From positions 928,001 to 992,000 of the forward strand of contig CAWBWI010000001.1 of the NCBI GenBank assembly GCA_963792585.1: a stretch of DNA of 64,000 bases, written 5' to 3'. This stretch comes from Candidatus Eiseniibacteriota bacterium. Lineage in GTDB: Bacteria; Eisenbacteria; RBG-16-71-46; CAIMUX01; VGJL01. The position numbers and the translations under genes were made by a program. Positions 41,430 through 59,661 of the stretch are shown piece after piece (within the stretch, counting starts at the first letter, position 1; each line of letters starts with the position of its first letter). Below the pieces are notes generated by a model. The model was not told the DNA's origin and searched no databases. It saw only the letters and a program-made list of their open reading frames with translations.

Positions 41430-42298
41430 CTAGCGTCCCTTCTCGCGGTTCTGGAGGATCTCGACGTAGTGGGTCAACTGCCGGACGCGGGGCTTGTCCT
41501 GCTGCTTCGAGTAGATCAAGACCAGGTTTCGCAGCATCCGGACCACGATGTCCCGGCTCGAGGAGGTCGCGATGTACTCCTCCTTGAAGTAGTAGCCGGC
41601 TCCGGTCAGAGTACTGCGCACAGTCCTTGCGGGTAAGCAGCCGCCCACCGTTGTACGGGTCGATGTAGATCTTCAACCTCGCCATCCTCGTACTTGACGA
41701 GGAAGTGGCCCGGCAGGCCGACTCCCCGGACGGGCAGGCCAAGGCGTTCGGTCAGCAGCAGGTAGAGCGCGGAGAGGGTGATCGGGATCCCGGTCCGCGT
41801 TTCGAGAACGCGGTTCATGAAGCTGTTGTCGGGCTTGTAGTAGTCGGCGGTGTTGCCGGTGAAGTGCAGTTCCTCGAAGAGGTAGCCGTTCACCGCCTGG
41901 ATGATCTCATGGGGTTGAATCAGTCCGCGGATCCTCTCGCGAAGAACGGTGGCGAGAGCATCGAGTTGCCGGCGGAAACCATCCCGATCCAACTCCGGAT
42001 ACTCGATGCGCGCGATCGCGATGGCGCCGTCTTCGAGACCGAAGTTCTCGTCGCTCCTGCCGGCCAGCGCCTGAAATTCCGCCTCGAGGTGATCGAGTTG
42101 GATGCGGGCCATGATGTGGCGCGCGCGCAGGCGCGTGCGCGGGTCAGGCGACTCGGAAGCCTCGCGGAGGTACACGATCGCGGGCGGGCCGATTTCGAGC
42201 AGATGCTCCCAAACGGTATGAAGCACCTTCACGTCCTCGTCGGCGAGCAATGAAATCAGAGCCCGGTACTCTCGATCGTTCAGAGACTTGGTCGGCAT
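41430..42298 (-). CDS. SirB1/transglutaminase-like (Transglut_core2) protein (frameshifted)
   Basis: F-x-GNTADYYKPDNSFMNRVLETRTGIPITLS, GVGLPGHFLV, YIDPYNGG, IVVRMLRNL. Confidence 0.87.
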
Positions 42299-42488
42299 CG
42301 ACACCTCTCGGCTACGTATTCCAACCCGACTCCCCCACCCAGCCCCTCGCCCACAGTGCAAGGGTACCCCCCGGTGGTGGGCGTCTCAACGCAAATCATC
42401 CGGCGCATGGATCCGCCGCGGAGCGCAACGTATACTGCTTGACAGGAAAACAGGTTCCGTGCAACCGCGCGCGGAGAAGGAGGTTTGC

Positions 42489-45400
42489 TTGGCGACTCGC
42501 CGCGAGATTCTCCGGATCGCCGGGGTTTTGGCTTCAGCGCCGACTGTCAGTTACCGCGAGCACGAAGCGCTCGCGAGGATCCGGCGCGAGCTGGACCACG
42601 CGGGCATCGATTACGCGACCGATCGATACGGCAACTTGCTTGCCCGCTACCGAGGATCGCGCGCCCGTGGTCGGTCGGTCGCCTTCTGCGCGCACACGGA
42701 TCATCCCGGATTCATCGTCGAAGCAAGCGCGCGACGTCGCGCGCACGCGCGCTGGATCGGGGGAGTCCAAGAGCGCTACTTCCCGCGCGCGCGCGTCCGC
42801 GTCGAAACGAGGACGGGACCCGTGCGCGGCCGCGTCGTCGCGTACGAGAAAGGTCCGAACGGCCGTGTCGCGCGGATCGCCATCACGTTCGACCGCGAGG
42901 TGTCGCCGGGAGCGATCGGCGGATGGGACCTGACGCCATTCGCCGTGGAGGGATCCTGGATCCGTACGAAATCGGCGGACGACCTGTTGGGATGCGCGGC
43001 GATCGTCTGCATGTTGAAGGACCTCGTTGCGACCCGTCCGGCGATCGACGCATGGGGAATCTTCACACGCGCCGAGGAGGACGGGCTCTTCGGCGCCTCG
43101 GCGCTTGCCGCTTCAGGGGTGCTGCCGAGAGAATGCGCCTTTGTCAGCCTCGAGACGAGCAGGGAGCTCCCATGCGGACGGCTCGGCCAGGGTGTCATCG
43201 TCCGTGTGGGCGATCGGATGAGCGTCTTCGATCCCGCCGTCAGCGGCGGGCTCCTGGAAAGCGCCGAAGAACTCGCGAAGCGTGACCGGCGCTTCAGATT
43301 CCAGCGCGGCCTCATGGATGGCGGCTCCTGCGAAGCGAGCGCGTTTCAGGCGTTCGGATATGCGGCCGGAGGTCTGGCCCTCCCCCTCGGCAACTATCAC
43401 AACATGGGCGAGAAACGGACTGCCGAGGAGGTCGTGCACGTCGATGACCTCGTCGGAATGAGTCGACTGCTGCCGGTCGCCGCCAAGCGGATTGCGTCGG
43501 GCCGCTCGCCCTTGGCCGTGCTGCGCGCGAAGCTTTCCAAGCGACTCCCCGCCGCGAAGCGGGAGTTGATCGCGTCGCGCAATCTCCTCGGGGGGCTCCT
43601 GATCGCGGGGCTGATCGCGGGAACGGCGACGGCCGGGCCACTCTCCGATCGCGCGACCCCGTCCCCGCCGAAATCGGGCGCGGCACGACCGATGCTGGAG
43701 CCGCGCGGCATGGCGGAGGCGGACCCGCTCGCCGTCTACGACGCTCTCCGATATGACATCTCAATCCGGATCGATCCTCCTGCGGAGAGCATCCAGGGGT
43801 CGGTGACGATGCTCCTTCGCGCAGAAACCGACATCGAGGCCGTGCCGGTCGATTGCGGAGCGAACCTGACCGTTGACTCGGTCGCCGTCGACGGGAGCCG
43901 CGCAAGCTTCTCCCGGCCCGGCCCCGACGAGCTTCGCATCGACCTGTCCGGGACTCTGGGCACGGGCGACAGCGTCCTGGTTGCCATCTATTATCACGGC
44001 GGTTCGATCCCCTCCCCTTTCACGGGTTTCGAGTTCTTCTCGAAGCATGGCGAGGGAACCGACGAGTTTCCGGTCGTTTCCACGATGAGCGAGCCGGACT
44101 TCTCCCACGCATGGTGGCCCTGCAAGGATCGGTTCGACGACAAGGCGCTCGCGTCGCTGACCATCGACGCGCCGCGCGGCTACGTCGTCGCCGGGTTCGG
44201 TCTCGGGACCATCGAGGAGGATCCGGTCGGCGATCGCCGCCGGACACGGTGGACGACCGCCTACCCGATCACTCCCTACCTCGTCTCATTCGCGGCATCC
44301 AACTACGTCTCCTGGACCGGCATCTACACCGGTGAGGACCTGGAGCCGATGCCGCTCGTCTTCTACGCCTACCCCGAAGACTCGTCCAAGGCCGCTGCGG
44401 ACTGGACGACGACCTCGGAGGCGATCACGGCATTCGAGTCCTTCTTCGGGCGCTATCCGTTCCGGAACCCGACGATCGGCGTCGAGAAACTCGGGATCGT
44501 GGAGTTTCCATGGAGAAGCGGCGCCATGGAAAATCAGACGATGATCTTCATGGGCGAGGGTTTTGTCTCCGGCGACAAGACCTTCGATTCGGTCCTCGCC
44601 CACGAGGTCGCCCACCAGTGGTTCGGCGATGCCGTGACGCCGACCTCGATCGATCACATCTGGCTCAATGAAGGCTTCGCGACCTACGGGGAGGCTCTCT
44701 TCTACGAGCACCGAAACGGGACGGCCGGTTATCGCGACTGGATGCAGCACATCCGCAGCCCCCTCGACTTCGAGTACCGCGGACCTCTCGTCGAGCCCGA
44801 TGAGTCGTTCGGGTCGACCGTCTACCGCAAGGGCGGGTGGCTCCTGCACATGTTGCGGGGCGTGCTCGGCGATCAGGATTTCTTCCGCGCCCTGAACACC
44901 TACTACGACCGATACGAGTATGCAAACGCCTCCACGGACGACTTCGTCCGGGCGGTCGAGGAAACGGCGGGCAGTGATCTGCGGTGGTTCTTCACTCCGT
45001 GGCTCTACGGAATCGGCCGGCCCCGGATCGCATGGGACTGGGAGACGGACGAACGCGGAAGCGCGAACGAGGTTCGACTCCTTATCTCGCAGACACAGGA
45101 TCCGATCGTCTATCCCCGGGGCGCCCCGCAGGATGGGGCGCCGGAGTCGTTCCGCTTCCCCCTCGAGGTGAGGATGTTCGCCGCCGGCGACAGCTCCAGC
45201 CGCACCGTATTCGTGGGGCAGAGGACGGCCGCCTTCTTGATCGACGACGTCCCCTTCCGTCCCGACAGCATCGCCCTCGACCCCGACCAGTGGATCCTCC
45301 GCGAGATCGCCCCGCGGGGCGCCGGCCTGCGCCCGAACGCGGCCGTCGCGTTCCCGAACCCGAGCCGGGGTCCGACGACGTTCATCGTGCATGTCGCCTC

Positions 45401-45602
45401 CGGTGCGCCGACCGAGGTCGAGATCTTCGATCCGGCGGGCCGGAGGGTCCGTTCCTTCGACCCACTGATAGGCGCCGGTCCCCATGCGATCTCCTGGGAC
45501 GGCCGGAACGATGCGGGCATTCGAGTGGCCTCGGGATTCTATTGGCTGCGGACGGCGGGACCCGGCGGCTCCGAGAGGGCCCGCGTCGTGGTCGTCAGAT
45601 GA
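42489..45602 (+). CDS. M42/M28-type peptidase in-frame with a secreted M1 aminopeptidase plus CTD (may be two genes)
   Basis: N-terminal AHTDH, ADD, RAEE, GNYH; signal-like segment from about 43566; M1 GAMEN, HEVAHQWFG, WLNEGFA, VYRKG; CTD FPNP...WDGRNDAG. Confidence 0.8.
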   Translation: MATRREILRIAGVLASAPTVSYREHEALARIRRELDHAGIDYATDRYGNLLARYRGSRARGRSVAFCAHTDHPGFIVEASARRRAHARWIGGVQERYFPRARVRVETRTGPVRGRVVAYEKGPNGRVARIAITFDREVSPGAIGGWDLTPFAVEGSWIRTKSADDLLGCAAIVCMLKDLVATRPAIDAWGIFTRAEEDGLFGASALAASGVLPRECAFVSLETSRELPCGRLGQGVIVRVGDRMSVFDPAVSGGLLESAEELAKRDRRFRFQRGLMDGGSCEASAFQAFGYAAGGLALPLGNYHNMGEKRTAEEVVHVDDLVGMSRLLPVAAKRIASGRSPLAVLRAKLSKRLPAAKRELIASRNLLGGLLIAGLIAGTATAGPLSDRATPSPPKSGAARPMLEPRGMAEADPLAVYDALRYDISIRIDPPAESIQGSVTMLLRAETDIEAVPVDCGANLTVDSVAVDGSRASFSRPGPDELRIDLSGTLGTGDSVLVAIYYHGGSIPSPFTGFEFFSKHGEGTDEFPVVSTMSEPDFSHAWWPCKDRFDDKALASLTIDAPRGYVVAGFGLGTIEEDPVGDRRRTRWTTAYPITPYLVSFAASNYVSWTGIYTGEDLEPMPLVFYAYPEDSSKAAADWTTTSEAITAFESFFGRYPFRNPTIGVEKLGIVEFPWRSGAMENQTMIFMGEGFVSGDKTFDSVLAHEVAHQWFGDAVTPTSIDHIWLNEGFATYGEALFYEHRNGTAGYRDWMQHIRSPLDFEYRGPLVEPDESFGSTVYRKGGWLLHMLRGVLGDQDFFRALNTYYDRYEYANASTDDFVRAVEETAGSDLRWFFTPWLYGIGRPRIAWDWETDERGSANEVRLLISQTQDPIVYPRGAPQDGAPESFRFPLEVRMFAAGDSSSRTVFVGQRTAAFLIDDVPFRPDSIALDPDQWILREIAPRGAGLRPNAAVAFPNPSRGPTTFIVHVASGAPTEVEIFDPAGRRVRSFDPLIGAGPHAISWDGRNDAGIRVASGFYWLRTAGPGGSERARVVVVR

Positions 45603-45704: not shown

Positions 45705-46688
45705 ATGCGTATCGGTGAACTCGAATTCAACCGCGGGATCTTCCTGGCGCCGATGGAGGACGTCAGCGAGCGGCCTTTCCGCCGCCTCTGCCGGCGCTTC
45801 GGCGCGGATCTCGTGTATACCGAGTTCATCTCCTCGGAGGCCCTGATCCGCCGCGTCGCCGCCATGCACGGCAAGATGCGCCTGGCCGACGACGAGCACC
45901 CGGTCGGCATCCAGCTCTACGGCAACCGGGAAGAGGCCCTGGTCGAGGCGGCCCACATCAGCGAGGAAGCCGGTCCCGATCTGATCGACATCAACTTCGG
46001 TTGTCCCGCCAAGAAGGTCGCCTGCAAGGGGGCGGGCGCAGGCATGCTCCGCGAACCCGACCGCCTGGTCGAACTGGCCGCAGCCGTCGTTCGCGCGGTG
46101 AGACTCCCGGTGACGGTCAAGACCCGGCTCGGTTGGGACTCCGGGTCGATCGTGATCGCCGACCTGGCCCGCCGGTTGGAGGATGTCGGCGTCGCGGCGA
46201 TCGCCATCCATGCCCGCACACGGCAACAGGCGTTCAAGGGAGATGCGGACTGGAGTTGGATCGCGCAGGTCAAGCAGGCGGTCTCGATCCCCGTCATCGG
46301 GAACGGGGACGTCCGGTCTCCGCAAGATGTGGCGCGGATGTTCGAGACGACCGGCTGCGACGCGGTGATGATCGGTCGGGGGGCGATCGGGCACCCGTGG
46401 CTTTTCGAGCGGGCGAAGGCGTTTCTGGCGACCGGTGTCGATCCCGGCCCGCCGCCGATGCGCGAGCAGGTCGAGGTCTACTACGACTTCCTCGCCGATT
46501 CCATCGCGGAGAAGGGCGAGCGAAAGGGATTGCTCGAGTCGCGCCGCCAGCTGAGCACGATCCTCAAAGGGCTCCCCCATGTCGCCGAGGTTCGCAGCGC
46601 GGCGATGCGGGAGACGACCGTCGAGGGAATCCGCGAACTGCTCGATCGGTTCCTCGAGGAGCAGGCTGAGGCGGAGGTTCGGGTGTGA
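45705..46688 (+). CDS. dusB: tRNA-dihydrouridine synthase B
   Basis: LAPMEDVS, YTEFIS, IDINFGCPAKKV, VTVKTRLG, IHART, IGNGDV, VMIGRGA. Confidence 0.92.
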   Translation: MRIGELEFNRGIFLAPMEDVSERPFRRLCRRFGADLVYTEFISSEALIRRVAAMHGKMRLADDEHPVGIQLYGNREEALVEAAHISEEAGPDLIDINFGCPAKKVACKGAGAGMLREPDRLVELAAAVVRAVRLPVTVKTRLGWDSGSIVIADLARRLEDVGVAAIAIHARTRQQAFKGDADWSWIAQVKQAVSIPVIGNGDVRSPQDVARMFETTGCDAVMIGRGAIGHPWLFERAKAFLATGVDPGPPPMREQVEVYYDFLADSIAEKGERKGLLESRRQLSTILKGLPHVAEVRSAAMRETTVEGIRELLDRFLEEQAEAEVRV

Positions 46689-47089
46689 TCCCCCGCGCTT
46701 GGCCGCGAGCTTGGGAGCCGTTGGTCGCGGCGGCGGCCGCTGCGCTTCCCCATGCCCGGAGCCGTCCCCGGCGCGCGGCCGCGATCCTCGACGCTGACGG
46801 AGGGGTCCACTGCGGGGTTTCGATCCAGGCGATCCACCCACCCGGAGCTTCCGTCTGCGCCGAACAGGTGGCCGTCGCCTCGATGTGCGCGGATGGCGCG
46901 CGTGCCCCGATCCGACTGGTTGTGCTCTCCCCTCGGGTTCCGGAGCGGCCGTGCGGTCGCTGTCTTCAGTTCCTGCTGGAGTTCAGCGAATCGGTCGAGA
47001 TCCGTTGGGGCACTCCGGGGCACGAGCACGGACGATCGACCGTCGAACGTCTCCTTCCGCTGGCCTTCCGCGACTATCGGGGTGTCTGA
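46685..47089 (+). CDS. cdd: Cytidine deaminase-like protein
   Basis: SVCAEQVA and PCGRCLQ zinc motifs; LLPLAF C-terminus; GTGA overlap with dusB. Confidence 0.75.
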   Translation: MIPRAWPRAWEPLVAAAAAALPHARSRPRRAAAILDADGGVHCGVSIQAIHPPGASVCAEQVAVASMCADGARAPIRLVVLSPRVPERPCGRCLQFLLEFSESVEIRWGTPGHEHGRSTVERLLPLAFRDYRGV

Positions 47090-47868
47090 TGCCGCCCGAT
47101 TCATCCGGAGGCTTCACCCCTCTGTCCGCGAAGTTCCGTGAGGAAGCCGTCTCCGCCGCGAGTTGGCTGGCCGAGCACGAGGGACAATCCCCCCCCGAAT
47201 CCGTGGGGCAAACCGTGCGGGCTCTGGCCGGATGCATCGACGAGACGCTCCTGGCGCCGACCGCCACCCCCAGCGCCATCGTCATGCTCTGTGCGGGAGC
47301 CCGCGACTCGGCCTTCGCTGCGGTCTGCGTCTCCCCCATCCATGTCGCCCTCGCGGCCAGGGAGCTCGCCGGAACCCGTGTCGCTGTCGCCACGGTGGTC
47401 GGCTTCCCCAGCGGCGCCCACCGATCGGAAGTCAAAGCGGCCGAAGCGGCCCGGGCGGTTGAGGACGGCGCCCTGGAGATCGACATGGTGATTCCCATTG
47501 GACTCCTGAAGGCCCGGATGGATGATGCGGTTCGGGCCGACATCGCCGCCGTCGTCAAGGCCTCGTCCGGACGGACGGTGAAGGTCATCCTCGAGACCGC
47601 CGCCCTCGAGGACGAGGAGAAGGTCCGAGGCGTTCACCTCGCCCGCGAGGCCGGCGCGATCTTCGTCAAGACATCGACCGGCTTCGGGCCCGGCGGCGCG
47701 ACGGAGGCCGACGTCGCCATCCTGCGCCGCGAGGCGGGCCTCATCATGGGCGTCAAGGCGTCCGGCGGCATCCGCACCGCGGTCGCCGCGCTCCGCATGG
47801 TGGGCGCCGGGGCCGATCGGATCGGTACCAGTTCGGGCGGCGCGATTCTTGCGGCCGTCCGCTCTTGA
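47089..47868 (+). CDS. deoC: Deoxyribose-phosphate aldolase
   Basis: AVCV, TVVGFPSG, EIDMVI, KVILET, FVKTSTGF, VKASGGIRT, RIGTSSG. Confidence 0.92.
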   Translation: MPPDSSGGFTPLSAKFREEAVSAASWLAEHEGQSPPESVGQTVRALAGCIDETLLAPTATPSAIVMLCAGARDSAFAAVCVSPIHVALAARELAGTRVAVATVVGFPSGAHRSEVKAAEAARAVEDGALEIDMVIPIGLLKARMDDAVRADIAAVVKASSGRTVKVILETAALEDEEKVRGVHLAREAGAIFVKTSTGFGPGGATEADVAILRREAGLIMGVKASGGIRTAVAALRMVGAGADRIGTSSGGAILAAVRS

Positions 47869-47896: not shown

Positions 47897-47926
47897 TTGA
47901 CCCTTCCTCGGACCCGCTGGTAGCTT
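47897..47926 (+). promoter_or_regulatory. Putative sigma70 promoter of the TBDR-PorV operon
   Basis: TTGACC-18 nt-TAGCTT with a TG extension, in the 90-nt gap after deoC. Confidence 0.6.
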
Positions 47927-47958
47927 TCCCCGCGATTGGCAGAACGTCAGACGAGGGA

Positions 47959-50880
47959 ATGAAGAAGAGAAGACTGGCCGGTTGGTTCCGCGATTCGCGC
48001 CTTCCACATCGAGCGGGAGGCGTCTGTTTGCTTCATCTGTTCCTCCTCTCATTGCTCGCCTTCGCGGTCACGGCGAAGGGTGCGGGCAGGATCGAGGGAC
48101 GTATCCTCGACGCCGAGAACGGCAAGCCCCTCGCCTACGCAAACGTGGTCCTCCTCGGCACCGCCAAGGGGGCGATGAGCCAAGCCGACGGCGGATTCGC
48201 CATCACCCCCCTCGATGCCGGCAGCTACGAGTTGCAGGTCAGCTTCGTCGGCTACGAGACCGTCAAGCAAACCGTCCAGCTCGAGGAAGGCCAGACGCTG
48301 ACCGTCACATTCCGCTTGAAGTCCTCCGCCGTGAGGACCCGGGAGGTGACGATCAAGGCGGATCGTCCCCTCGTCGACGTCAAGCGCGCCTCCACCATTC
48401 GCACGTACGACGAGTCGGAGCTCAAGGCGCTCGCCAGTCAGCCGACGCTCGACAGCGTGGTCGAGCAGCAACCGGGGGTCACCAAGGACAACGATCAGAT
48501 CCACATCCGCGGCGGACGCGCCGACGAGACGCTCTACATCGTCGACGGCGTGAAACAACGCGACCTGCTCTCCGGCGATTCCAAGGGTTCGACGATCGGA
48601 TCGCGGTCGGTCGCCGAGGTAAACATCATCACCGGAGGATTCGACGCGAAATACGGCCAGGCGCTGTCGGGGATCGTCGAGGCGAAGCTGAAGGAGGGAA
48701 CCGAGCAGTTCCACGGCTACTTCGGATACTCAACCGATCGCGGGATCGACGACCAGACGGTCGATCTCTTCGATTTCCAGATCTCGGGCCCACTCCAGGT
48801 GATGCCGCGCGTCGCGAAGCTTCTGGGCGCGGATGACGGCGGAAAGATGAAGTTCTTCCTCGACGTCTCCGCCGATCTGAGCAACGGATGGCTTCCTTCG
48901 ATCCGCGACCTCCCGGGCGACAAGAAGCTGCACTCTTCGTATAGCGATCGGATGTTCGGGAACCGCTACCGGTACGAGAACTTCTTCTACCCCCGCGCGA
49001 ACAACGATTGGAGGCTTCTCTTCAAGACGAGCTGGCGCGCGACGACATCGGACAAGTTCGATCTCTCGTTCACGAAGAGCTTGAGCTTCGATCAAGGTTT
49101 CGGACAGGCGGACATCGCCGACATCAACCGCAACGAGATCAGCTACCCGTGGAACTGGGCGAATCGACTCGACCACTACTACACCGACAGCCAGGATCAG
49201 AACGCGTTCTCATTCGTATGGAACAAGGGCGTGACGCGCAATCTCGTGAGCGCCATGACCCTCACTCGATTCTTCACATCGAGCCACAGGGACGTGGCGG
49301 GCAAGCTGTGGACCGGCTACGACGCGCGCACCGACACCGACGCTCCCGACGAGAACGTGTCCCCCTATTTCCGGGACGTCGGGGACGCCTCCGACTACCG
49401 CGATCGGTTCGTGGAGACCCTGAGCCTCTCCAACGACTGGTCCTTCACGCGCAACCGTCACAAGTTCGATTGGGGCTGGGGCCACCAGCTCGAGAACGTC
49501 CAGTACCTCACCCTGACGGCAACCACCATCGATCTTCCCGACAAGCCTCTCGGCGACGAGTTCGACCTCTTCCACGTCCACCCATCTTCGGGGGCGATGT
49601 ACGTGCAGGATCGGCTCGAGTACGAGAGCCTGATCGCCGGGATCGGCCTGCGCTACGACTACTGGTTCCCGGGCAAGGAAGTCGAGGACCTCTTCGACAA
49701 CTGGCAGACGCTGAACCGGCCGACCATCAATGCCGCAACACGTGAGGAGTTCATCGGGGACACCCACGGGCTGTTCGGCCGACGATTCAAGGGACATCTC
49801 TCTCCGAGGCTCCAGATCAGCCATCCGATCACGGCACACGACAACCTATTCTTCAACTATGGCCACTTCACGCAGCGTCCCGCCTACTTCTACGTCTTCG
49901 CGAAGTCGAGTTCGCAGTCGTCCGAGGAGTTCCCGCGCATCGGGAATCCGAATCTCAACCCCGAGATTTCCGTGCAGTACGAGCTGGGCGGGGGCCATCA
50001 GTTCAAACCCGATCTCGCCACGAAGCTCTCCCTCTTCTACAAGGACATCTACGACTACCCGACCTCGACGACCCTCGTTCTCAAGGAACGCCGGACGAGC
50101 CGATCGAATTTCTTCATCTATCGAAACCTGGACTACGCACGCTCCACGGGATTCGAGATGGAGCTGCGCAAGCGTCGGCTTGGGCACTGGAGCGGGGCGG
50201 TCGCTTATACATATTCCGTGGCCAAGGGAAAGAGCTCCGACCCGAACAACCTGAAGCTCGTTCAGGAGAGCGGCGGTGACGCCCGGGAAACGGATCTTGG
50301 CGAGATGTTCATGTGGTGGAATCGGCCGCACAAGTTCACGATCTGGTATTCCTGCGCTTCCGAGCGCGGCGACAGGATGCGGCTGTTCGGAAGGCGCCTG
50401 CCGGACGACTGGAACCTGAGCGTCTACACGCTCGTCCAGTCGGGGCGCGCCTACACGCCGACCAACAGCTTCGGGGACAAGACCGGGCAAGACTACTCGA
50501 AGAACGGTCCTTTCGAGACGACGACCAACCTGAAGCTCCGGAAGGGATTCCGCCCGTTCGGCCTCAACATGGAGGCGACCCTCGAGGTCTTCAACCTCTT
50601 CAACCGGCGGACTGCGTTGTCGGTCGACCCGGCCACCGGCAAGCTCTGGAAGCCGGGCAAGGGATCCCTCAACTCGGCCTACGAGAATCCTGCGAACCTG
50701 AAGCTCTCGGATGAGGATCTGATCGAGGCCACCGGAGCCAGCGTCGGCGCCGATCAGTCGATCGAAGAGGTGGCCGCGGGGATCCGATCCACGATCCAGG
50801 CCACCGTCGATCGATATGCGAACCCGTCGTACCGGGCCGCGCCACGGGCCGTGCGCGTCGGCGTGGGGGTCGAATGGTGA
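47959..50880 (+). CDS. TonB-dependent receptor with N-terminal carboxypeptidase-regulatory-like domain
   Basis: GRIEGRILDAENGKPLAYANV, VSFVGY; plug IHIRGGRADETLYIVDG, GGFDAKYGQALSG; SPRL, GNPNLNPE, NLFN; C-terminal W. Confidence 0.92.
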   Translation: MKKRRLAGWFRDSRLPHRAGGVCLLHLFLLSLLAFAVTAKGAGRIEGRILDAENGKPLAYANVVLLGTAKGAMSQADGGFAITPLDAGSYELQVSFVGYETVKQTVQLEEGQTLTVTFRLKSSAVRTREVTIKADRPLVDVKRASTIRTYDESELKALASQPTLDSVVEQQPGVTKDNDQIHIRGGRADETLYIVDGVKQRDLLSGDSKGSTIGSRSVAEVNIITGGFDAKYGQALSGIVEAKLKEGTEQFHGYFGYSTDRGIDDQTVDLFDFQISGPLQVMPRVAKLLGADDGGKMKFFLDVSADLSNGWLPSIRDLPGDKKLHSSYSDRMFGNRYRYENFFYPRANNDWRLLFKTSWRATTSDKFDLSFTKSLSFDQGFGQADIADINRNEISYPWNWANRLDHYYTDSQDQNAFSFVWNKGVTRNLVSAMTLTRFFTSSHRDVAGKLWTGYDARTDTDAPDENVSPYFRDVGDASDYRDRFVETLSLSNDWSFTRNRHKFDWGWGHQLENVQYLTLTATTIDLPDKPLGDEFDLFHVHPSSGAMYVQDRLEYESLIAGIGLRYDYWFPGKEVEDLFDNWQTLNRPTINAATREEFIGDTHGLFGRRFKGHLSPRLQISHPITAHDNLFFNYGHFTQRPAYFYVFAKSSSQSSEEFPRIGNPNLNPEISVQYELGGGHQFKPDLATKLSLFYKDIYDYPTSTTLVLKERRTSRSNFFIYRNLDYARSTGFEMELRKRRLGHWSGAVAYTYSVAKGKSSDPNNLKLVQESGGDARETDLGEMFMWWNRPHKFTIWYSCASERGDRMRLFGRRLPDDWNLSVYTLVQSGRAYTPTNSFGDKTGQDYSKNGPFETTTNLKLRKGFRPFGLNMEATLEVFNLFNRRTALSVDPATGKLWKPGKGSLNSAYENPANLKLSDEDLIEATGASVGADQSIEEVAAGIRSTIQATVDRYANPSYRAAPRAVRVGVGVEW

Positions 50881-51875
50881 CCCGTCGCATCTCGGTCCTC
50901 CACCTGCTGCTCGGACTCGCCGCCATCAGCGCGTCCGCCGCCAACGCCCAGACGAGCCTGGGCGGCCAGCGCGCAGGAACATCCAGCGGAACATTCCTCA
51001 AGATCGGCGTCGACGCCCGCGGAGTCGCCCTCGGGGGCGCCTACGTCGCCCTCGTCGAAGGGCCGTTCGCACCATTCTACAATCCGGCGGGTATCTCCAA
51101 GATGCGCGACCCCGCCGGAGCATTCAGCTATGCCCGCTGGCCGGCCGACATCAGCGTCTTCGCATTCTCCTTCGGCCGCCCGTGGGGGGACGCAGGCTCC
51201 GCCCTCGCCGTGTCCGCCGAGTATGTGGGAACCTCGCTGGACGAAACCGACGAATACCATCCCCTGGGGACCGGTCGCACCTTTTCCTATAGCGATCTCC
51301 TGCTCGGATTCAGTGCCGCGCGTCCGTTCACCGACCGCTTGTCGATCGGCGTCTCGACGAAGTTCTTCCGTGAGGACCTCGGATCCGGGGTCGGCGGACC
51401 GGTCACCCAGAGCTGGCTCGTCGACGCGGGGACTTGTTATCTGATCGGGGCGTTGAATGGTCGGCTCGCCATCAGCCTTCTGAACTTCGGACCCGACCTC
51501 AAGCCGGAAGGATCGTTCTACAGCGTCGTGCGCCAGGATCAGGTCGACTACGCAAGCTTCTCGGCCCCGACGAGTTTCCGGATCGGCCTCTCCCTCGAGC
51601 CGTATCACCGCGGCCCGCACGGTCTGCTCCTGGCGAGCGAGGTCGTTCACGTCGCCGACAATCAGGAATCGTTCCGCGGAGGCCTCGAGTACTCCTACCA
51701 GGGGCGCTATTACGCACGCGCCGGGATGGATCCGGGCGCGGACGCGGCGAAGTTCTCCGCCGGCCTGGGTCTCTCGATCCCCCTCGCGGGCTCGAACCTG
51801 AAGATCGACTATGCCTACACGGACGGGGGCCCCCTTCTGGCGATCCATCGCTGGTCGGTGGTGATGCCGTTCTGA
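50874..51875 (+). CDS. PorV/PorQ family (FadL-like) outer-membrane beta-barrel
   Basis: FLKIGVDARGVALGGAYVA, FYNPAG, LLNFGP, P-x-SFRIG, GLEY, IDYAY; C-terminal F; overlaps the TBDR stop. Confidence 0.85.
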   Translation: MVTRRISVLHLLLGLAAISASAANAQTSLGGQRAGTSSGTFLKIGVDARGVALGGAYVALVEGPFAPFYNPAGISKMRDPAGAFSYARWPADISVFAFSFGRPWGDAGSALAVSAEYVGTSLDETDEYHPLGTGRTFSYSDLLLGFSAARPFTDRLSIGVSTKFFREDLGSGVGGPVTQSWLVDAGTCYLIGALNGRLAISLLNFGPDLKPEGSFYSVVRQDQVDYASFSAPTSFRIGLSLEPYHRGPHGLLLASEVVHVADNQESFRGGLEYSYQGRYYARAGMDPGADAAKFSAGLGLSIPLAGSNLKIDYAYTDGGPLLAIHRWSVVMPF

Positions 51876-51883
51876 GGTACGGG

Positions 51884-52837
51884 ATGGGAAGGATGCGGGA
51901 GCGGATCCTGGGGATCATGGCCGCCGTCGTGGTGCTCGCCGGTTGCGGTCAGAAGTTCACCCTTCCGCCACAACCCGAGCCCGGCCGGATTCCGACCCCC
52001 GGAACCTACAACCTCGACAAGGTCTGGCACCTTCCGTCACCGACCGACGTGGTCCTGCGCGGCAGCTACCTCTTCGTGATCGAGGAGCATGCGCGGGTGA
52101 ACGTCTACCTGAGCCGCCAGAAGGAGCCGGTCCATCCGAGTTTCATCGGGACCTTCGATGGTCTGACCCGACCGATCCAGCTCTGCCTCGCGAAGCGGGA
52201 CTCGACATTCCTCTTCGTGGCCGATGCCGCGGACATGACGATCAAGCGTTACTACTTCCGCGGGGGTCCTTCGCTCTTCAGCTTCACCGACACGTCGTGG
52301 ACCTCCATCGACGGGATCGCCGCGGACAGCGACCTGAACGTCTACGTCTCCTGTGCCGTCCGCGACAGCAGCGTGATCTACAAGTACAACGCCCTGGGCA
52401 AGAGGGTGCGGCTGATCTCCGGCGCCGGCACCGGTCAGGGGTTCTGCATCCGCCCGCACGGCCTGGCCTTCGTCAACAACTCCGTCTGGGTTTCCGACCC
52501 TGGCAATTCCCGCGCGCAGCGTCTCCACTCAGATTCGACGAACGCCGCCTACCCCGGGAGGCCGATCGGCGCGGTGTTCCCGCTCGCGGAGCCGGTCGAC
52601 GTCGCGACGGATCCTGCGGGCCAGAGGATCTTCGTCGTGGAGGAACAGGGCGACCGCATCCTGCGATTCCAGCCGACGGGGGCGCTCGAGGACACCGTCT
52701 ACACGCAGGCACGCAAGGAGACGATCGTCGATCCGCCCATCGACGCGCCCCGCTATATCGCCGCCGACGACAGCCTCGTATTCCTGCCCGATTCGGCGAA
52801 CAACCGGATCGTTGTCGTGAGGCTCACGAAACAATGA
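51884..52837 (+). CDS. NHL-repeat beta-propeller lipoprotein
   Basis: VVVLAGC lipobox; repeats GIAADSDLNVYV, PHGLAF...VWVSDPGNSR, PVDVATD...IFV, PRYIAAD...DSANNRIV. Confidence 0.8.
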   Translation: MGRMRERILGIMAAVVVLAGCGQKFTLPPQPEPGRIPTPGTYNLDKVWHLPSPTDVVLRGSYLFVIEEHARVNVYLSRQKEPVHPSFIGTFDGLTRPIQLCLAKRDSTFLFVADAADMTIKRYYFRGGPSLFSFTDTSWTSIDGIAADSDLNVYVSCAVRDSSVIYKYNALGKRVRLISGAGTGQGFCIRPHGLAFVNNSVWVSDPGNSRAQRLHSDSTNAAYPGRPIGAVFPLAEPVDVATDPAGQRIFVVEEQGDRILRFQPTGALEDTVYTQARKETIVDPPIDAPRYIAADDSLVFLPDSANNRIVVVRLTKQ

Positions 52838-54797
52838 GGCGCCCCATCACCATATTGACGTTCTGCGTCCTCTGGATCGCGGCGCTGCCGATCGCCCGAG
52901 CCGACGACGACGGCCTTCGCGTCTACCTGAACGGCAAATGGCAGGCGCTCGACGCCGCCGCGCGGATCGACACGCTGATCTCCCTGCGCGTCACCTCCGG
53001 CAACAACATGGGACTCACGCTCTACAACACAGGCTTCGTCGGGACGAACCTCGCCGACCGCTCCCCGTCGATGGAGTTTCCGCTGCGGAGCACTCAGGAA
53101 CATCTGGTCCGGGCCGGACTCTGGGTGGGGGGCTCACGACCAGCGAGCCGCCCGAGAGTCTGGTGTCGACCGCGACGATCGACGGATCCGTTGGGAGCTT
53201 CGATCCCAACTCGGTGAGCGAGTTCTTTCCTTCGGCGACCGAGATCCGGGAACGCTCGACGTTGCCGAACAGCCGCTACTTCAGCCCCGACGCCCGCAGC
53301 GAGCAGGACTTTCAGCTCGCCTACTTCGACAGCCACCACCACACCAATCCGGAGCACCACCCTCTGGGGGTCAAGGTGGAGCTGGAGACCATGCTCTACA
53401 GCTTCGAGCCGTTCGACGCGATCGTGATCGCCAACTACAAGATCATCAATACCAAGCCCGACGATCCGATCTACAACCTCTATGTCGGCCTCTACTCGGA
53501 GATGGCCTCCGGCTGGAAGGATGGGCACGCCGAGTGGCCCCCGAGCGGTTGGTTCCGGAAGAAGGACATCGCCTACGTCGATTCGCTCCGCCTCGTGACC
53601 GAGCATCACTACAACCTGGACAACGGCAACTGCCCGTCGTGGGGCGGCGCGCTCTTGCTCGGCACCCGGCCGAAGCCAATCGGCGAGATGACCGTCTCGT
53701 TCAACTGGTGGAACTGGGACCCGAACGGCAACCTCTCCGGGACCCCGCACGTCGACGCCGAGCGTTTCGCCACGATGAGCAACGGCTCGATCGACGCGAC
53801 CGCCGGCCTCGAGGCGCCGAACAACGACCCGGTCACCCTCCTCTCGGTCGGCCCCTTCGAAGTGCTGGAGCCCGGTGACACGATCCAGGTCTCGTTCGCA
53901 TTCGTCGGTGGCCAGCCTTCGCCCAGGGACGGCCGGAGCGCCGAGCAGGACATCGCCTTCAACGCTCAGTGGGCGCAGAAGGCATTCGACCTGAATTTCA
54001 ACATCCCCGTTCCTCCCCCCTCCCCCACCATGCGGGTATTCCCGGGGCATGACCGCCTGACGCTGCGTTGGGCTCGATCCCCCGAGGACTTCCTCGATCC
54101 GAAGAGCCACCAGAAGGACTTCGAGGGCTACCGGATCTACGTGAGCGAGGAGAAGGAGGAGGAAGGCTTCCGGATGATCCGACAGGTCGACAAGGTGGAC
54201 AGCCTCCTCGAGAACACCGGACTCGAGGCGGTGCGCGACCCGCAGACGATAGACGGCGTGGACTACGAGTACCGCTACGACATCGAGAGCCTGCGGGACG
54301 GGTTCAAGTACTGGACGACGATCACGTCCTTCGACACCGGCACGAACGAGGTCCCGCCCCTCGAGAGCGGCCTGGCGCAGGGCCGTACCTTCGCCATCCC
54401 CGGCGCGGGCACGAAGTTCGAGAACAAGGTGAAGGTCTTTCCGAACCCGTACCGAGGAGACGCCGTCTGGGACGGATCCCTGGCCCGCGACCGGTATCTC
54501 TGGTTCGTGAACTTGCCGAAACGCTGCACGATCCGGATCTACACCCTCTCGGGCGATCTGGTCGACACGATCCCGTTCGATGCGGCGACCTACAACGCGA
54601 CGGAAATCCGCGGCATCTTCGATCCGACCGACGTCCAGAACCCGGACAACGACGTCCCGGTGCTCTCCGGCGGCATGGCGGCATGGGACCTTGTCACACG
54701 CAACGATCAGGGGATTGCCTCGGGGCTGTATATCTTCTCGGTCGAAGACCTCGAGACCGGCAAAACTCAGCTCGGCAAGTTCCTGGTCCTGAAGTAG
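52834..54797 (+). CDS. Secreted hypothetical protein with FN3-like segment and variant T9SS-type CTD (frameshift near 53130)
   Basis: ATGA overlap; signal peptide; GLWVGG; VPPPSP...LTLRW...DFEGYRIY; KVFPNPY...FVNLP..CTIRIYTLSGDLV...WDL...IASGLYIFSV...GKFLVLK. Confidence 0.8.
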
Positions 54798-54810
54798 GAA
54801 TGGTTCACCC

Positions 54811-56298
54811 ATGAGGATTCGGATCCGTCTCGCCCTGTTCCTCCTCCTGCTCGGGGCCCTGCCCGCGTGCGAGGAGAACAAAGGGGTCTATCCGCCGAAC
54901 GTGGCGCCGAAGACCTATCTGTCCGTCGTCGGCGACAGCCTGTCGTCGACCGACTATCGCAAGATCCTCCACTGGTGGGGCAGCGACCCCGACGGCGTGG
55001 TCGGCGGCTACCTGATCCGGTGGAACGGCGGCTGGGTCCCCCCTACGGGAACGGGCCGGGAGTATGCCGGCGAGCTGTATGCGTTCACGACGGCGACACA
55101 GGACACATTCCCCGTGCCGCTCGACGGGACCGGCGCAGTGCGGAATTTCATCGTGCGCGCGGTGGACGCCGAGGATCTGGTCGACCCCGTCGGCGTGAGC
55201 CAGAGTTTCCCTCTCCACAACAACGCTCCCTCGCTCGCGTGGAATGCCGAGATCCCGAGACCGACGAGCAGCTACCCCGCCGTCGCATTCGGCTTCCGTC
55301 CGACCGACTTCGACGGACGCGAGACGGTGATCAGCTACCGGATCTGGCTCGACGACGACTCCCTGAACGCGCGGACCGTATCCGACACGATCGTCGGCCT
55401 CTACCCCGCGGACTTCGGAGGCGATCATACAACCCGGGAACGAACGGTCCACGTACGCGCATACGATGACGCCCGCGCTGCGAGCAACACTCTCTCGCAC
55501 AGCTGGACGGTCCAGTGGCCGCAGACCGAATGGCTCAAGATCGATCAGGTCCCCCCTACCGGAAACCTCGCCAACTGGGATCGGCAATTCTACGCGGCGG
55601 TCATCGACTCCGTCTTCGGGACCGCTCTCGACCGGATCGACCTGTACAATGGTCCCGACTTCACGACGAGCCAGGAGATCGGTCCGCTCTTGTCGCTCTT
55701 CCGAGGCGTCCTCTGGCTCACCGGGCCCCATGTGGCGTCGAACGAATCGAAGATGGCCCGCAACCTGGCGCTTGCGGAGCAGGGCATCCGTGAGTACGTC
55801 GAGAACGGGGGACGGGTGCTCCTGATCGGCCAGTCCGTCCTCGGCTCCGGCGGCGGACTCTCGGACGCGTTCGCCACTGAGGTGCTCGGGATCCCCGAGT
55901 TCTTCGAGCAATGGACCGACATCCAGGATCCGTCGAGCGGCTCGACGAATGTTCCGATGAGCCATCCCGTGTACTACCGCAGGCTGGACGGGGGTCCCGA
56001 CAGCCTCCTCGTCTACAACATTCCCAACTATGTCGATTACTTCCGGGAACCCATCGCGCCGGCGGCCGGCCGTTACTGGGTCGCACCGGGGATACTCCGG
56101 ACGGAAACCGGCAACGCAATCGTCCCCGGCCAGGACCTCGATCCCGCCTATGCCGCCGTCACGGCGCCGTACGGTCAGGGCAGCATCACGGTCGTCACGA
56201 CATCCTATGCCCGGCTCTACGACGTCCTGCGCAACCCCGAGTGGAAACAGACGATCGGTGAGGGAATCCGACTATTCCGTGAGGCGCTCCAGCCCTAA
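54811..56298 (+). CDS. Hypothetical lipoprotein (Ig-like N-terminus)
   Basis: LLLGALPAC lipobox; NVAPKT, WWGSDPDG, FIVRAVD; YVENGGRVLLIG. Confidence 0.78.
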   Translation: MRIRIRLALFLLLLGALPACEENKGVYPPNVAPKTYLSVVGDSLSSTDYRKILHWWGSDPDGVVGGYLIRWNGGWVPPTGTGREYAGELYAFTTATQDTFPVPLDGTGAVRNFIVRAVDAEDLVDPVGVSQSFPLHNNAPSLAWNAEIPRPTSSYPAVAFGFRPTDFDGRETVISYRIWLDDDSLNARTVSDTIVGLYPADFGGDHTTRERTVHVRAYDDARAASNTLSHSWTVQWPQTEWLKIDQVPPTGNLANWDRQFYAAVIDSVFGTALDRIDLYNGPDFTTSQEIGPLLSLFRGVLWLTGPHVASNESKMARNLALAEQGIREYVENGGRVLLIGQSVLGSGGGLSDAFATEVLGIPEFFEQWTDIQDPSSGSTNVPMSHPVYYRRLDGGPDSLLVYNIPNYVDYFREPIAPAAGRYWVAPGILRTETGNAIVPGQDLDPAYAAVTAPYGQGSITVVTTSYARLYDVLRNPEWKQTIGEGIRLFREALQP

Positions 56299-56322: not shown

Positions 56323-56351
56323 TTGACTGGGAGCCCCGGATGAGCTAGAGT
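56323..56351 (+). promoter_or_regulatory. Putative sigma70 promoter with AT-rich UP-like element
   Basis: TTGACT-17 nt-TAGAGT preceded by TTTATTAAGAACCCTTAA; leader hairpin at 56365-56387. Confidence 0.6.
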
Positions 56352-56443: not shown

Positions 56444-58397
56444 ATGCGTCTGTCGCGCACTCTGGTCCTGCTGGCGAGCATCCTGTTGCTTGCCGGTGCG
56501 GCCATGGCAGAAGACTCGATCTATTCGATCCAGCTCGGCCTGATCAACAACAACACGCCGGTGGATGTCCAGGGCGTCGTCGTCACCGCCGTCGGCCGCT
56601 TCGGGGTCTTTGTTCAAGAACCGACGCCGGATCCGACCTATGGAAGGCAATACAGCGGGATCTGGGTCTATACCAACACCGTTCCCACCGTCCATCGCGG
56701 CGACATCGTCAACGTCCGCGGGACCTATTACGAGTACTTCGACTTCAGCGAGATCGACGCCTCTCCAGCCTACAACGGCACGGTCACCTTTACGGGTCTC
56801 GGCACGGTTCCGGATCCAGTGAGCGTCACGATCCCCGAGGTCAACAACCAGGGGTCATTCTCGGAGCCGTACGAGAGCGTCCTGATCCGCGTCGACCGAG
56901 AGGACAACACACTCTTTGCAGGCAGGCTCGACACCCACAACGAGTGGCACCTGAAGCGCGATCAACCCGTCACCTCGCCCTACCTGCAGATGGACCAGTA
57001 TTCCGCCCTCCCGACCGGCGACTTCACGTACGACGTGCCTGACTCCGGAGCGGCGCTCACCTTCGCGCAGGGCATCCTGGTCTACAACTTCAGCGAGTAC
57101 AAGCTCGCCCCTCGAAACTGCGATGAGGACCTGGGCACCGCCTGCCGCCCGAAGCTCCGCGGCGCCTACGGGACTTCCGCGACCGGCGTGGCCGTCCAGT
57201 TCGGCGTCCCCGTCACGCAGCAATCGGCGGAGACCGTGAGTAACTATCAGCTCGGTAGCGGACTCCTGGTGTACCAGGCGCACATCGATCCCTCCAACCA
57301 CAAGCGCGTATTCCTGGTCACCGATAACCTGGGCAACGGCGAGGAAGAGACGATCACCGTTCGCAACATCGTCTCCGAGAGCGGAGCGGTGATGAGCGGT
57401 CCCGAGACCGCGGCTTTCCGCACGGGCATCACGCCGATCGCATTGATCCAGCAGGTGGATGACCCGGCGGTGACCGATGTCTCCCCCTTGATCAACGAAG
57501 TCGTCACGATCTCCGGCCGGATCTCCGCCCTCGAGGGAACGAACTACTACTACCTCCAGGACGATGACGGCGGGGCATGGGACGGGATGTACGTGCGCGT
57601 CGCGAAGGGCACATCCCCGCTCAAGGTCGGGGACAGGGTTCATGTCGCCGGGCAGGTGACCGAGTACTTCGGCATGACGGAGCTCGAATTACAAGTCCGG
57701 CATCGACTACCTGCTTCCGCTCGGTGAGACCGGTCCGGTTACCACGAATGTCCTCCACACGAGCGATTTGAAGTACCGCGATACCGCCAAGGGCGCCGAG
57801 CCTTGGGAAGACTGCCTCGTCCGTCTGGAGTCCGCAACGCTCGACTCGCTCGCGGGCGTCGCGGGTCCGGCGTTCGGCGAGTGGCTCCTCTTCCAGCAGG
57901 GCTACCCCGACACCGCCAAGTTCGACATCAACGGCATGAACGGCAACAAGGCCTACGCCGCGTGCATCGGCGACGTCATCAACCTGACGGGCATGCTCGC
58001 CTACACGTTCGATCAGTATCAGATCTGGCCCCGGTCCGGTCGTGGGATCGACATCCAGGTCATCTACGACAACCCCGCGTGCCAGCCGACGGCTGCGCCC
58101 GAGAACGGCCCCTTCTCCGCGGGTCCTGCCTTGGAAAGCGTCCCCAACCCCTTCAACCCGAAGACGACGATCCGATACACCCTGCCCGAGGCCGGCTCCG
58201 TTCGCCTCGAAATCGTCGATCCCTCCGGAAGGATCGTCCGGACGCTCGTCGACCGTGTCGTGCTGAGCGCCGGAACGCAGCAGTCCGTCTGGGACGGCCG
58301 CGACGACGCCGGGCGACCGGCCGGAACCGGAACATACTTCGCGAAGCTCCGGACCGAGGAAGGAAGCGTCTCGAACAAGCTCATTCTCCTGAAGTAG
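56444..58397 (+). CDS. Secreted tandem OB-fold (YhcR/ExeM-like) protein with CTD (frameshift about 57700-57770)
   Basis: GGAGG RBS; signal peptide; two modules of V..G.V(T/S)A...(F/Y).Q...(S/D)G..V...GD.V.V.G...EYF..(S/T)E; CTD PNPFNP...WDGRDDAG...KLILLK. Confidence 0.78.
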
Positions 58398-58484: not shown

Positions 58485-59198
58485 TCAGCGATCGTCCCGA
58501 TCGATGTAGTCCCGGATGTCGTAGACCGTCGTCTTCTTCCGCCGGCGCCGATGGAGCGGGCCCCAGGGGACGATCCAGAGGAAGAGCAGGCCGAAGAGGA
58601 TGCCACCCAGGTGGGCGAGGTGCGCGATGCCGCCCCCGTGGCCCTGTCCCCTGTCCATCACCGAGGGCAAGGAGGAGACGAATTCGAACGCGCCGAAGAT
58701 GATCACGAAGTACTTCGCCGGCATCGGGAAGAGGAACCAGATCAAGATCGGGCGGTTCGGCCAACGGATCGCGAAGGCCAGGAGCAGGCCGTAGATCGCG
58801 CCGCTCGCGCCCACGATCGGAGTGAAGGAGTGCGGCTGAAAGACCGCGTTCGTGATCCCGGCGCCGATCCCGGTGACGAAGTAGTACTGGAGGAAGCGCT
58901 TGGCGCCCCATTCATGCTCCAGCTCGCTGCCGAACATCCAGAGAGCCAGCATGTTGAAGAGGATGTGCATGAACGAGCCGTGCAGGAACATGTAGGTCAC
59001 GATCTGCCAGATGAACCCGTGAAAGAGCGCGGCCGGCACCAGGCCGAGGTATCCCAGTGCGAGCTCATAGAATGTCGGATTCAACTTCTCTGCGATCGTC
59101 ATGCCCAGGAAGAAGATCACGTTCCAGGCGATGAGAAGACGGACCATCGTCGAGAGGGACCCGCCAAGGGAGAACCCGCCGCCGCCCCGGTAGCTCAT
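58485..59198 (-). CDS. Rhomboid intramembrane serine protease
   Basis: WQIVTYMFLH, HILFNM, VGASGA (Ser), AHLAHLGG (His). Confidence 0.93.
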   Translation of the reverse strand: MSYRGGGGFSLGGSLSTMVRLLIAWNVIFFLGMTIAEKLNPTFYELALGYLGLVPAALFHGFIWQIVTYMFLHGSFMHILFNMLALWMFGSELEHEWGAKRFLQYYFVTGIGAGITNAVFQPHSFTPIVGASGAIYGLLLAFAIRWPNRPILIWFLFPMPAKYFVIIFGAFEFVSSLPSVMDRGQGHGGGIAHLAHLGGILFGLLFLWIVPWGPLHRRRRKKTTVYDIRDYIDRDDR

Positions 59199-59621
59199 GG
59201 CGTTGCGGGCTGCGCGCCGGACGAACCGGCCATCCCGTCGCGTCCCGCCGGGATGTCCCGGCCCATGTGGCAGTTACCCTGGAAGATCGCGCCGTCCTGG
59301 ATGCGGAAGGAGCGGGCATAGACGTCGCCGCGCAGGTGCGCTCCCGTCCGAAGCTCGAGGGCATCCCGGACGTGGACGTCGCCCTCGATCTTTCCGGCGA
59401 TTCGCGCCCGCTCGGCGGTCAAATCGCCCCGCACCGCATCCGCCCAGCTCGATCTCGACATCACCGGTCGCGGTCAGCCCCCCATCGATCTCGCCGAGGA
59501 CGCGGGCGCCGCCGCGAATCGTGACGTCCCCCTTGATCTTGCAGCCGGCCCCCAGGACCGTGTCGAAGGTCGCCGGCTCGACCGCAGCCGACTCCGTTCC
59601 CTTGGGTTTGCGAAACAACAC
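59195..59621 (-). CDS. Bactofilin (polymer-forming cytoskeletal protein; frameshift near 59450)
   Basis: TVLGAGCKIKGDV, GKIEGDV, LEL...LRGDV, IQDGAIFQGNCHM. Confidence 0.85.
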
Positions 59622-59661
59622 GGAACGCGCTCCTCCCCTGTCGATGCGATCGCTCGTCCTA

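Follow-up and report, generated by a model that had tools for sequence, protein, structure and literature searches.

The nearest described counterparts of the locus reported here are the ddb loci, ddbABCDEF of gut Bacteroidales and RA0C_RS04915/04920 of Riemerella, which share with it a TonB-dependent receptor lacking SusD and a DUF5689/OB-type surface protein (bioRxiv 10.1101/2025.03.18.642099; PMC8459023). A further likeness is that secreted nucleases belong to the ddb locus and nucleosides are deaminated downstream (bioRxiv 10.1101/2025.03.18.642099). Another precedent is provided by T9SS, the type IX secretion system, in which the barrels of the PorQ-PorZ and PorV-PorU pairs keep a cognate, uncleaved C-terminal domain (CTD), as has also been proposed for SprF/PorP (PMC10202324). 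Here we describe a six-gene outer-membrane cassette in a 64,000-nucleotide stretch of DNA from a Candidatus Eiseniibacteriota bacterium (GCA_963792585.1, contig CAWBWI010000001.1, positions 928,001 to 992,000; hereafter the window). The six genes form a real and widely conserved unit. We propose, with a probability of roughly 0.68, that the cassette captures extracellular DNA or RNA and imports the fragments through its receptor for use as food, with the protein encoded by gene 4 held by the cassette's own PorV-family barrel. By analogy, it would function like ddbABCDEF without being a member of that group. The genes, in window coordinates, are as follows.

47959..50880, plus strand: gene 1, TonB-dependent receptor (CarboxypepD_reg, Plug and barrel domains)
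50874..51875, plus strand: gene 2, PorV/PorQ-family barrel (NF033709, 137 bits; cut-off 90)
51884..52837, plus strand: gene 3, NHL beta-propeller lipoprotein (PF01436; lipobox Cys22 as read from the sequence; NHL propeller matches in the PDB)
52834..54797, plus strand: gene 4, secreted protein of ~650 amino acids with a variant CTD (frameshift after 53126; model of an intact orthologue)
54811..56298, plus strand: gene 5, lipoprotein with two FN3/Ig-like domains and a GATase1/ThuA-like domain (Cys20 invariant; model and fold searches)
56444..58397, plus strand: gene 6, OB-fold surface protein with an ordinary type A-like CTD (NF033681, TIGR04183; frameshift at 57686)

An original prediction made from the letters alone had described an operon of five tightly packed genes encoding a receptor, a PorV-like barrel, an NHL lipoprotein, a variant-CTD protein and a second lipoprotein. 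The observation is confirmed, with intergenic gaps of -7, +8, -4 and +13 nucleotides on one strand. The five genes are real, but the conserved unit has six, and the prediction had missed OB-fold gene 6, which starts 145 nucleotides beyond gene 5, as well as the probable nucleic-acid substrate.

Conservation of the cassette extends well beyond close relatives. A long match to gene 4, at 44-74% identity, is present in 32 of 40 relatives; two others have fragments at contig ends, and six have no match. The named relatives are Candidatus Eisenbacteria. A scan of genome contigs gave 585 matching stretches, of which the best 80, representing 74 loci, were retained, and these reach KSB1 and Flavobacteriales, including Salibacter halophilus. 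At E<=1e-40, the Salibacter orthologue of gene 4 is matched in turn by 123 of the 401 genomes of its GTDB phylum, mostly as a single copy, and 40 of these 123 carriers were retrieved. Named carriers include Ignavibacteriales, Balneola sp., Rhodocaloribacter litoris, Cyclonatronum and S. halophilus. After 16 duplicates or paralogues had been removed by hand, 136 loci were tallied, 121 of them with a receptor or barrel gene. All six genes occur together in 92 of these 121, in Eisenbacteria, KSB1 and Bacteroidota alike. Seven further loci have a large gene at the OB position that scores below threshold (a CTD is present in all three that were scanned), and the remaining 22 mostly stop at contig edges. 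Locus L070 lacks the receptor and OB genes, and L102 lacks the OB gene despite spare flanking DNA.

The 92 complete loci follow one of two gene orders, and no third order was seen. In Eisenbacteria the order is receptor-PorV-NHL-CTD-lipoprotein-OB, with an additional CTD gene in front in six loci, and in KSB1 and Bacteroidota it is CTD-OB-lipoprotein-receptor-PorV-NHL. These orders are circular permutations of each other, and gene order is conserved, as the original prediction required. We also observed that, in one Eisenbacteria clade, loci L073, L079, L087, L092, L097, L100 and L104 carry a second variant-CTD gene just upstream of the receptor and one barrel gene. Three loci labeled Bacteroidaceae, Desulfobacterales and Terriglobia (L130, L126 and L063) encode cassette proteins that group elsewhere, and these labels may be wrong.

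The barrel encoded by gene 2 had been proposed to be a dedicated PorV paralogue, and our results agree with this assignment. A profile of 31 cassette barrels matches PorV best in the PDB (E 5e-14) and the FadL-type TodX at E 8e-5, in keeping with the NF033709 match listed above. The window barrel has no Pfam match, PF03349 included, and we accordingly rejected a FadL/TodX identity; the Salibacter orthologue does reach the PF03349 cut-off (29.7 bits), as expected of a homologous fold. The window barrel is also not an orthologue of PorV or PorQ, given that its equivalog scores fall under the cut-offs (NF033710, 40 of 250 bits; NF033711, 68.7 of 220 bits) and that a better PorV candidate (129.9 bits) lies elsewhere in the genome. 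In a tree of 61 rows, 25 cassette barrels form a single clade (100/98), apart from five other barrels of this genome and 31 barrels from other loci in which a receptor, a variant-CTD protein and a PorV-family barrel are encoded together (hereafter triads). The genome holds eight PorV-family genes over cut-off. It has 266 open reading frames (ORFs) with type A-like CTDs and just five with variant CTDs, four of which have a PorV-family gene within 1 kb. At C2:51568-57417 of this genome and at L202, a variant-CTD protein is preceded by two relatives of the gene 5 lipoprotein, and no strong PorV-family gene is close by.

The CTD of gene 4 has no match to TIGR04183 and a weak one to the C terminus of PorZ (E 0.002). 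Profile-profile comparison relates it to type A-like CTDs (84.5% probability, E 7e-6), from which it differs by two inserts. The predicted complex between the window barrel and the FN3-CTD fragment of gene 4 scores 0.92, compared with 0.00 for the best control, a result that may only mirror likeness to solved PorV-CTD complexes. The mark applied to this score is reached by 116 of 157 solved pairs and by 2 of 215 mismatched pairs. The modeling runs share at least 93% of contacts, and the partner has a predicted local distance difference test score (pLDDT) of at least 82. The interface covers 55 residues of the partner, 49 of them in the CTD, and includes the first insert, which is absent from type A CTDs. 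On both chains, interface columns are more conserved than the remainder (0.61 vs 0.47; 0.68 vs 0.51). An interface is therefore predicted for the pair, as anticipated, and we consider it likely that the cassette barrel anchors gene 4's protein at the cell surface.

The receptor comprises an N-terminal extension, a plug and a barrel. It scores 51.8 bits on the SusC model TIGR04056 (cut-off 368) and 0.7 bits on a DdbC-like profile whose own members score 950-1236. This profile was built from 11 receptors adjoining strong DUF5689 genes, such that their DdbC identity is inferred from adjacency. In contrast, a profile of the receptors of other triads gives cassette receptors 349-559 bits. Judged by its sequence, the receptor shares a family with those of the other triads and is neither SusC nor DdbC, and we rejected a DdbC identity on the strength of the 0.7-bit score. 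Two receptors next to the cassette in other loci (L159:15448-18078 and L160:16548-19193) reach 211 and 168 bits with the DdbC-like profile, far above the other receptors tested and far below the profile members.

The claim that no SusD-like gene is present also stands. There are no SusD Pfam matches among the cassette proteins, and a search for PF07980 across the genome, which is 84% complete, was negative, while the Bacteroides thetaiotaomicron control was positive. Fold searches point the same way, since one lipoprotein is an NHL propeller and the other is FN3-FN3-GATase-like, and neither can be taken for SusD. With the TIGR04056 score far under its cut-off and no SusD match, we also rejected membership in the SusC/SusD class of loci.

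Gene 6 bears on the substrate. It encodes two ExeM/YhcR-like OB-fold modules flanking an Ig-like domain, followed by a type A-like CTD, and it matches the ExeM OB region (NF033681, E 1e-17) in two stretches and TIGR04183 above cut-off. The OB region is required for the nuclease activity of ExeM (PMC6085458). No nuclease domain was detected in gene 6 itself. Its orthologues match DUF5689 (PF18942; E 8e-9 in L124 and 8e-12 in L173), and the Atlas yields DUF5689 clusters (at 0.95; 13-22% of members). DUF5689 is the domain of DdbD (bioRxiv 10.1101/2025.03.18.642099) and of the Riemerella transformation protein (PMC8459023).

Genes for nucleic acid and nucleoside metabolism recur beside the cassette. 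In the group that includes the window, the flanks carry cdd, deoC and rpiB, and in other Eisenbacteria they carry either adenosine deaminase (add) and uridine kinase (udk) genes or a 5'-nucleotidase gene. In Flavobacteriales-type loci, EEP hydrolases with a CTD lie upstream, and elsewhere they lie downstream; a PDB sequence search with one of these EEP neighbors returned nothing useful. Other flanking genes encode DUF5689-PLD-CTD proteins closest to the Nuc/NucT nucleases, a nucleotide pyrophosphatase and endonuclease I. Of 112 cassette loci, 70 have a gene for a nuclease, phosphodiesterase or nucleoside/pentose enzyme no farther than 3.5 kb away, compared with 0 of 30 paralogous receptor-CTD-PorV loci. 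The seeds of this count were drawn from the test set, the genomes include related ones and are to that extent not independent, and one of the positives is RpiB alone. By type of locus, such neighbors are found in 36/54 Eisenbacteria-type, 1/11 KSB1-type and 33/47 Bacteroidota-type loci (nuclease or phosphodiesterase in the last).

Because the seeds came from the test set, we also carried out a Pfam scan (E<=1e-8) of 113 genes flanking 31 control triads. These flanks encode amylases, GH5, GH43, pectate lyase, glucoamylase-like proteins, peptidases and LacI regulators, along with a single metallophosphoesterase and a single GDPD. At this threshold, at which weak EEP matches could be missed, neither nucleases nor nucleoside enzymes were detected there, and the EEP and OB profiles that we built gave no match beside the control triads. 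The weight of the neighbor evidence lies in the appearance of about nine unrelated enzyme families in the flanking slot. Taken together with the OB folds, these families indicate that the substrate is probably nucleic acid. Triads are numerous in their own right (L175-L213), with at least 10 in one genome (G043), and their subfamilies adjoin glycoside hydrolases, peptidases, aroK/tatA with pilin-like genes, or pgk/gap with GWxTD proteins.

From these observations, a path for the substrate can be sketched. The OB-fold protein, with its ordinary CTD, would be exported by the type IX route and bind nucleic acid, which would then be cut by a secreted nuclease whose gene adjoins the cassette in many genomes and in this one lies elsewhere. 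Gene 4's protein, clipped to the cassette barrel through its variant CTD as predicted, would join the two lipoproteins in an extracellular cap that takes the place of SusD. Oligonucleotides would pass through the receptor into the periplasm, and nucleotidase, deaminases, uridine kinase and DeoC would salvage or burn the resulting nucleosides.

Which protein might form the lid over the receptor is a separate matter. An intact orthologue of gene 4 was modeled with a pLDDT of 88 and consists of a beta-supersandwich, an FN3-like domain and the CTD. Its N-terminal domain resembles the N-terminal domains of GH116/GH94-type enzymes (Z 20; root-mean-square deviation (rmsd) 3.1-3.8 A; 258 residues at 3.1 A). 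Genes 4 and 5 have no Pfam match, and an Atlas search with gene 4 returned unnamed clusters only. The gene 5 model (pLDDT 91) shows two FN3/Ig-like domains and a GATase1/ThuA-like domain (Z 14.2, rmsd 3.6 A, 205 residues), and among the matches listed its sole near-full-length one is chain G of 8aa2 (Z 9.2, rmsd 8.4 A, 297 residues), which we take to be the surface glycan-binding protein of the levan utilisome. A PDB sequence search with this lipoprotein gave nothing useful. The NHL lipoprotein gene directly follows the barrel gene in both cassette orders; matches of its product to the RNA-binding proteins TRIM71/Brat were set aside as being generic to propellers. BtuG, whose fold is a propeller, offers a comparison here. 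It is a non-SusD lipoprotein that can act as a lid (PMC10404256). The proposal that gene 4's protein is the receptor lid is somewhat doubtful, and the NHL propeller and the surface-glycan-binding-protein-like lipoprotein are equal candidates for this role.

Perhaps the cassette represents something more general. We tentatively suggest, at a little under even odds, an ancient alternative to SusC/SusD in which a receptor is capped by type IX cargo clipped to its own PorV-like barrel, with substrate-specific paralogues across the Fibrobacteres-Chlorobi-Bacteroidetes (FCB) phyla. The six-gene form would then serve DNA/RNA feeding independently of the Bacteroides ddb loci and be largely exclusive with them.

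Several observations weigh against DNA/RNA feeding, in addition to the limits on the complex score and on the neighbor count given above. No such neighbor is found in 42 of the 112 loci, including 10 of the 11 KSB1-type loci (10 of these 11 have less than 1 kb of downstream DNA). The window's own gene 6 protein has no PF18942 match, there is no nuclease gene within the window, and the EEP-CTD gene of this genome sits on a different contig. The genome also has an add-udk pair and a gene for a 5'-nucleotidase away from the cassette. The EEP, PLD and NPP families include lipid-acting members, and the N-terminal domain of gene 4 has a glycoside-hydrolase-type fold. Also troubling is the export machinery. 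The genome has a PorU-like gene over cut-off and a SprA-like gene in pieces, but neither GldM nor GldN was found in it, and a 99%-complete relative likewise gave no GldM match. The GldM model is positive in Salibacter and negative in genomes G004, G081 and G142. Type IX export of the cargo in Eisenbacteria is therefore less certain, and the genome possibly encodes a T9SS with a divergent or missing motor. The SprA-like gene (L214, C4:17000-21300) is split into at least three ORFs, probably by assembly frameshifts, and a stretch of no more than 14 kb at C1:865496-878743 (L180) holds genes for ComEC, a PorV2-like barrel, RNase R and PorU.

A cassette that binds DNA could also import it as genetic material and not mainly as food, in the manner of the DdbC/DdbD homologues in Riemerella. 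Its DUF5689-type domain is common with RA0C_RS04920, which is essential for transformation (PMC8459023), the genome encodes ComEC, and the cassette occurs mostly in single copy, with a barrel tree that follows phyla. However, the neighbors are degradative or catabolic (nucleases, nucleotidase, deoC, deaminases), no competence gene is among the annotated recurring ones, and ComEC lies ~110 kb from the cassette and is positive in 10 of 14 control genomes. We consider natural transformation an unlikely role. About as unlikely is a SusD-free locus for the use of glycans or cell-envelope polymers, in which the nucleic-acid neighbors would be incidental. The match of the gene 4 N-terminal domain to GH116, GH94 and related enzymes, the levan-utilisome match of gene 5 among those listed, and the glycoside hydrolases around paralogous triads all fit such a locus. 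Yet that same domain occurs in the paralogous triads and lacks the catalytic barrel of the enzymes, the OB-fold gene belongs to the conserved block, and no recurring glycoside hydrolase or LacI regulator is among the annotated cassette neighbors, apart from LysM-transglycosylase genes in three loci.

The mostly single-copy, ancient cassette has no regulator, as would suit a housekeeping machine for outer-membrane assembly or export. A TonB-dependent transporter is reportedly needed for secretion in Myxococcus (Oar), and the receptor could export protein in a similar way. Alternatively, the small barrel might dock as BamG does on BamA, and BamG, a FadL/PorV homologue, serves as a platform for surface proteins (PMC12578637). 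A housekeeping function is difficult to reconcile with the failure to find the cassette in 278 of 401 genomes of the phylum and in 6 of 40 relatives, with the substrate-specific loci in which the receptor's paralogous family otherwise occurs, and with the location of the SprA- and PorU-like genes elsewhere, and we regard it as very unlikely. The secretion machine suggested in the original prediction likewise gains no support. Least probable of all is broad scavenging of phosphodiesters (phospholipids, teichoic-acid-like polymers, nucleotides) for phosphorus. EEP, PLD and NPP are phosphodiesterase families, and the PLD matches do include cardiolipin hydrolase/Zucchini, but the best of these matches are Nuc endonuclease and NucT, with the PLD domain fused to DUF5689, and endonuclease I, deoC, cdd, add and udk are specific to nucleic acid or nucleosides. 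Thus, uptake of DNA or RNA for feeding is the reading that we prefer.

Other features of the window that adjoin the cassette are listed below.

45705..46688, plus strand: dusB, tRNA-dihydrouridine synthase, outside the cassette (TIGR00737, 344.6 bits, above cut-off)
46685..47089, plus strand: cdd, cytidine deaminase-like, nucleoside catabolism neighbor (PF00383, E 2e-5; TIGR01354, 54.8 bits, under cut-off)
47152..47868, plus strand: deoC, deoxyribose-phosphate aldolase, nucleoside catabolism neighbor, start approximate (TIGR00126, 235.9 bits; cut-off 117.3)
47897..47926, plus strand: weak sigma70-like site TTGACC-N18-TAGCTT (sequence reading; under scan threshold)
56323..56351, plus strand: sigma70-like site TTGACT-N17-TAGAGT before gene 6 (scan; count at chance level)

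The upstream position of dusB is kept in close relatives only. The suggestion that a single promoter drives the genes gains no support, given that the site before gene 1 agrees at 8 of 12 positions by eye and falls below threshold, and that the scan returned two sites against 1.7 expected, one of them before gene 6. Two metatranscriptome runs span the stretch, with contigs of flat depth and records up to 36 kb. These characteristics make DNA carry-over possible, and the runs were not used as evidence of expression. Runs with small word shares were left aside when habitat was considered. Gene 4 is broken by the loss of one base in a G run (an extra G follows 53126 in ~95%-identical strains, and the gene is a single ORF in relatives), and gene 6 is broken by an indel at 57686 that is absent from the contigs of the same strains. 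Because contigs of ~95%-identical strains lack both indels (in the same three of four runs), we attribute the two splits to assembly errors, and the intact frames in close strains rule out true pseudogenes. A third one-base indel relative to close strains is located at 59437. Elsewhere in the window, an M42-like peptidase is continuous, through a true fusion or a lost stop, with a CTD-bearing aminopeptidase-like region in one 1104-amino-acid ORF (42288-45602), the parts being separate ORFs in relatives, and a transglutaminase-like gene (41606-42361) is apparently frameshifted. On the minus strand (58485-61407), genes for a rhomboid protease, a bactofilin and a GAF-SpoIIE protein are kept downstream of the cassette in 14-19 relatives.

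If nucleic acid feeding is the correct reading, it would explain SusD-free TonB-dependent importers in Ignavibacteria, Rhodothermia, marine Flavobacteriales, KSB1 and Eisenbacteria, link type IX sorting directly with the import of nutrients, and give a name to a widespread recycling route for environmental DNA and RNA. It can be tested in cultured carriers, namely S. halophilus, R. litoris, Cyclonatronum and Balneola sp. The original prediction knew of no characterized system with this layout. That statement holds for the arrangement, in that no description of the cassette or of the receptor-CTD-PorV triad was found in the literature searched (which covered few subscription papers and not the ddb locus table), but barrels with cognate CTDs were already known (PMC10202324).

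Compared with the ddb loci, the cassette has a receptor that resembles DdbC in nothing beyond fold (0.7 bits), an OB protein with a T9SS CTD instead of a lipid anchor, and, in the window, no secreted nuclease of its own. It adds a PorV-family barrel, a variant-CTD protein, an NHL lipoprotein and an FN3-GATase lipoprotein. None of the 14 genomes with strong DUF5689 (DdbD-like) genes is among the 123 carriers, a comparison confounded by phylogeny, and this lack of overlap may reflect functional replacement or mere phylogeny. Like the SusC/SusD utilisomes, the cassette has a receptor with several surface partners, and the domain layout of gene 5 is that of a levan-utilisome chain. It differs from them by having no SusC-type receptor, SusD or carbohydrate-active enzyme and by having two partners that are putative T9SS cargo and not lipoproteins. 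BamG resembles the cassette barrel as a FadL/PorV-homologous barrel with a conserved N-terminal extension that is a platform for surface proteins, and differs in that it docks on BamA and appears essential (PMC12578637). No BamG chain is among the 13 PDB matches of the barrel profile at E<=10, its presence in the library copy being unchecked. As in PorQ-PorZ, PorV-PorU and SprF/PorP with type B cargo, a PorV-like barrel is predicted here to hold a specific CTD partner, and as with SprF/PorP the barrel and cargo genes are clustered (PMC10202324). Unlike those pairs, this one is co-encoded with a TonB-dependent receptor, its CTD misses TIGR04183 and carries two inserts, and its barrel misses the PorV/PorQ equivalog cut-offs. 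The cassette is thus apparently an undescribed variant of TonB-dependent utilization loci, one in which, as the models suggest, a known T9SS anchoring principle is used in a new setting.

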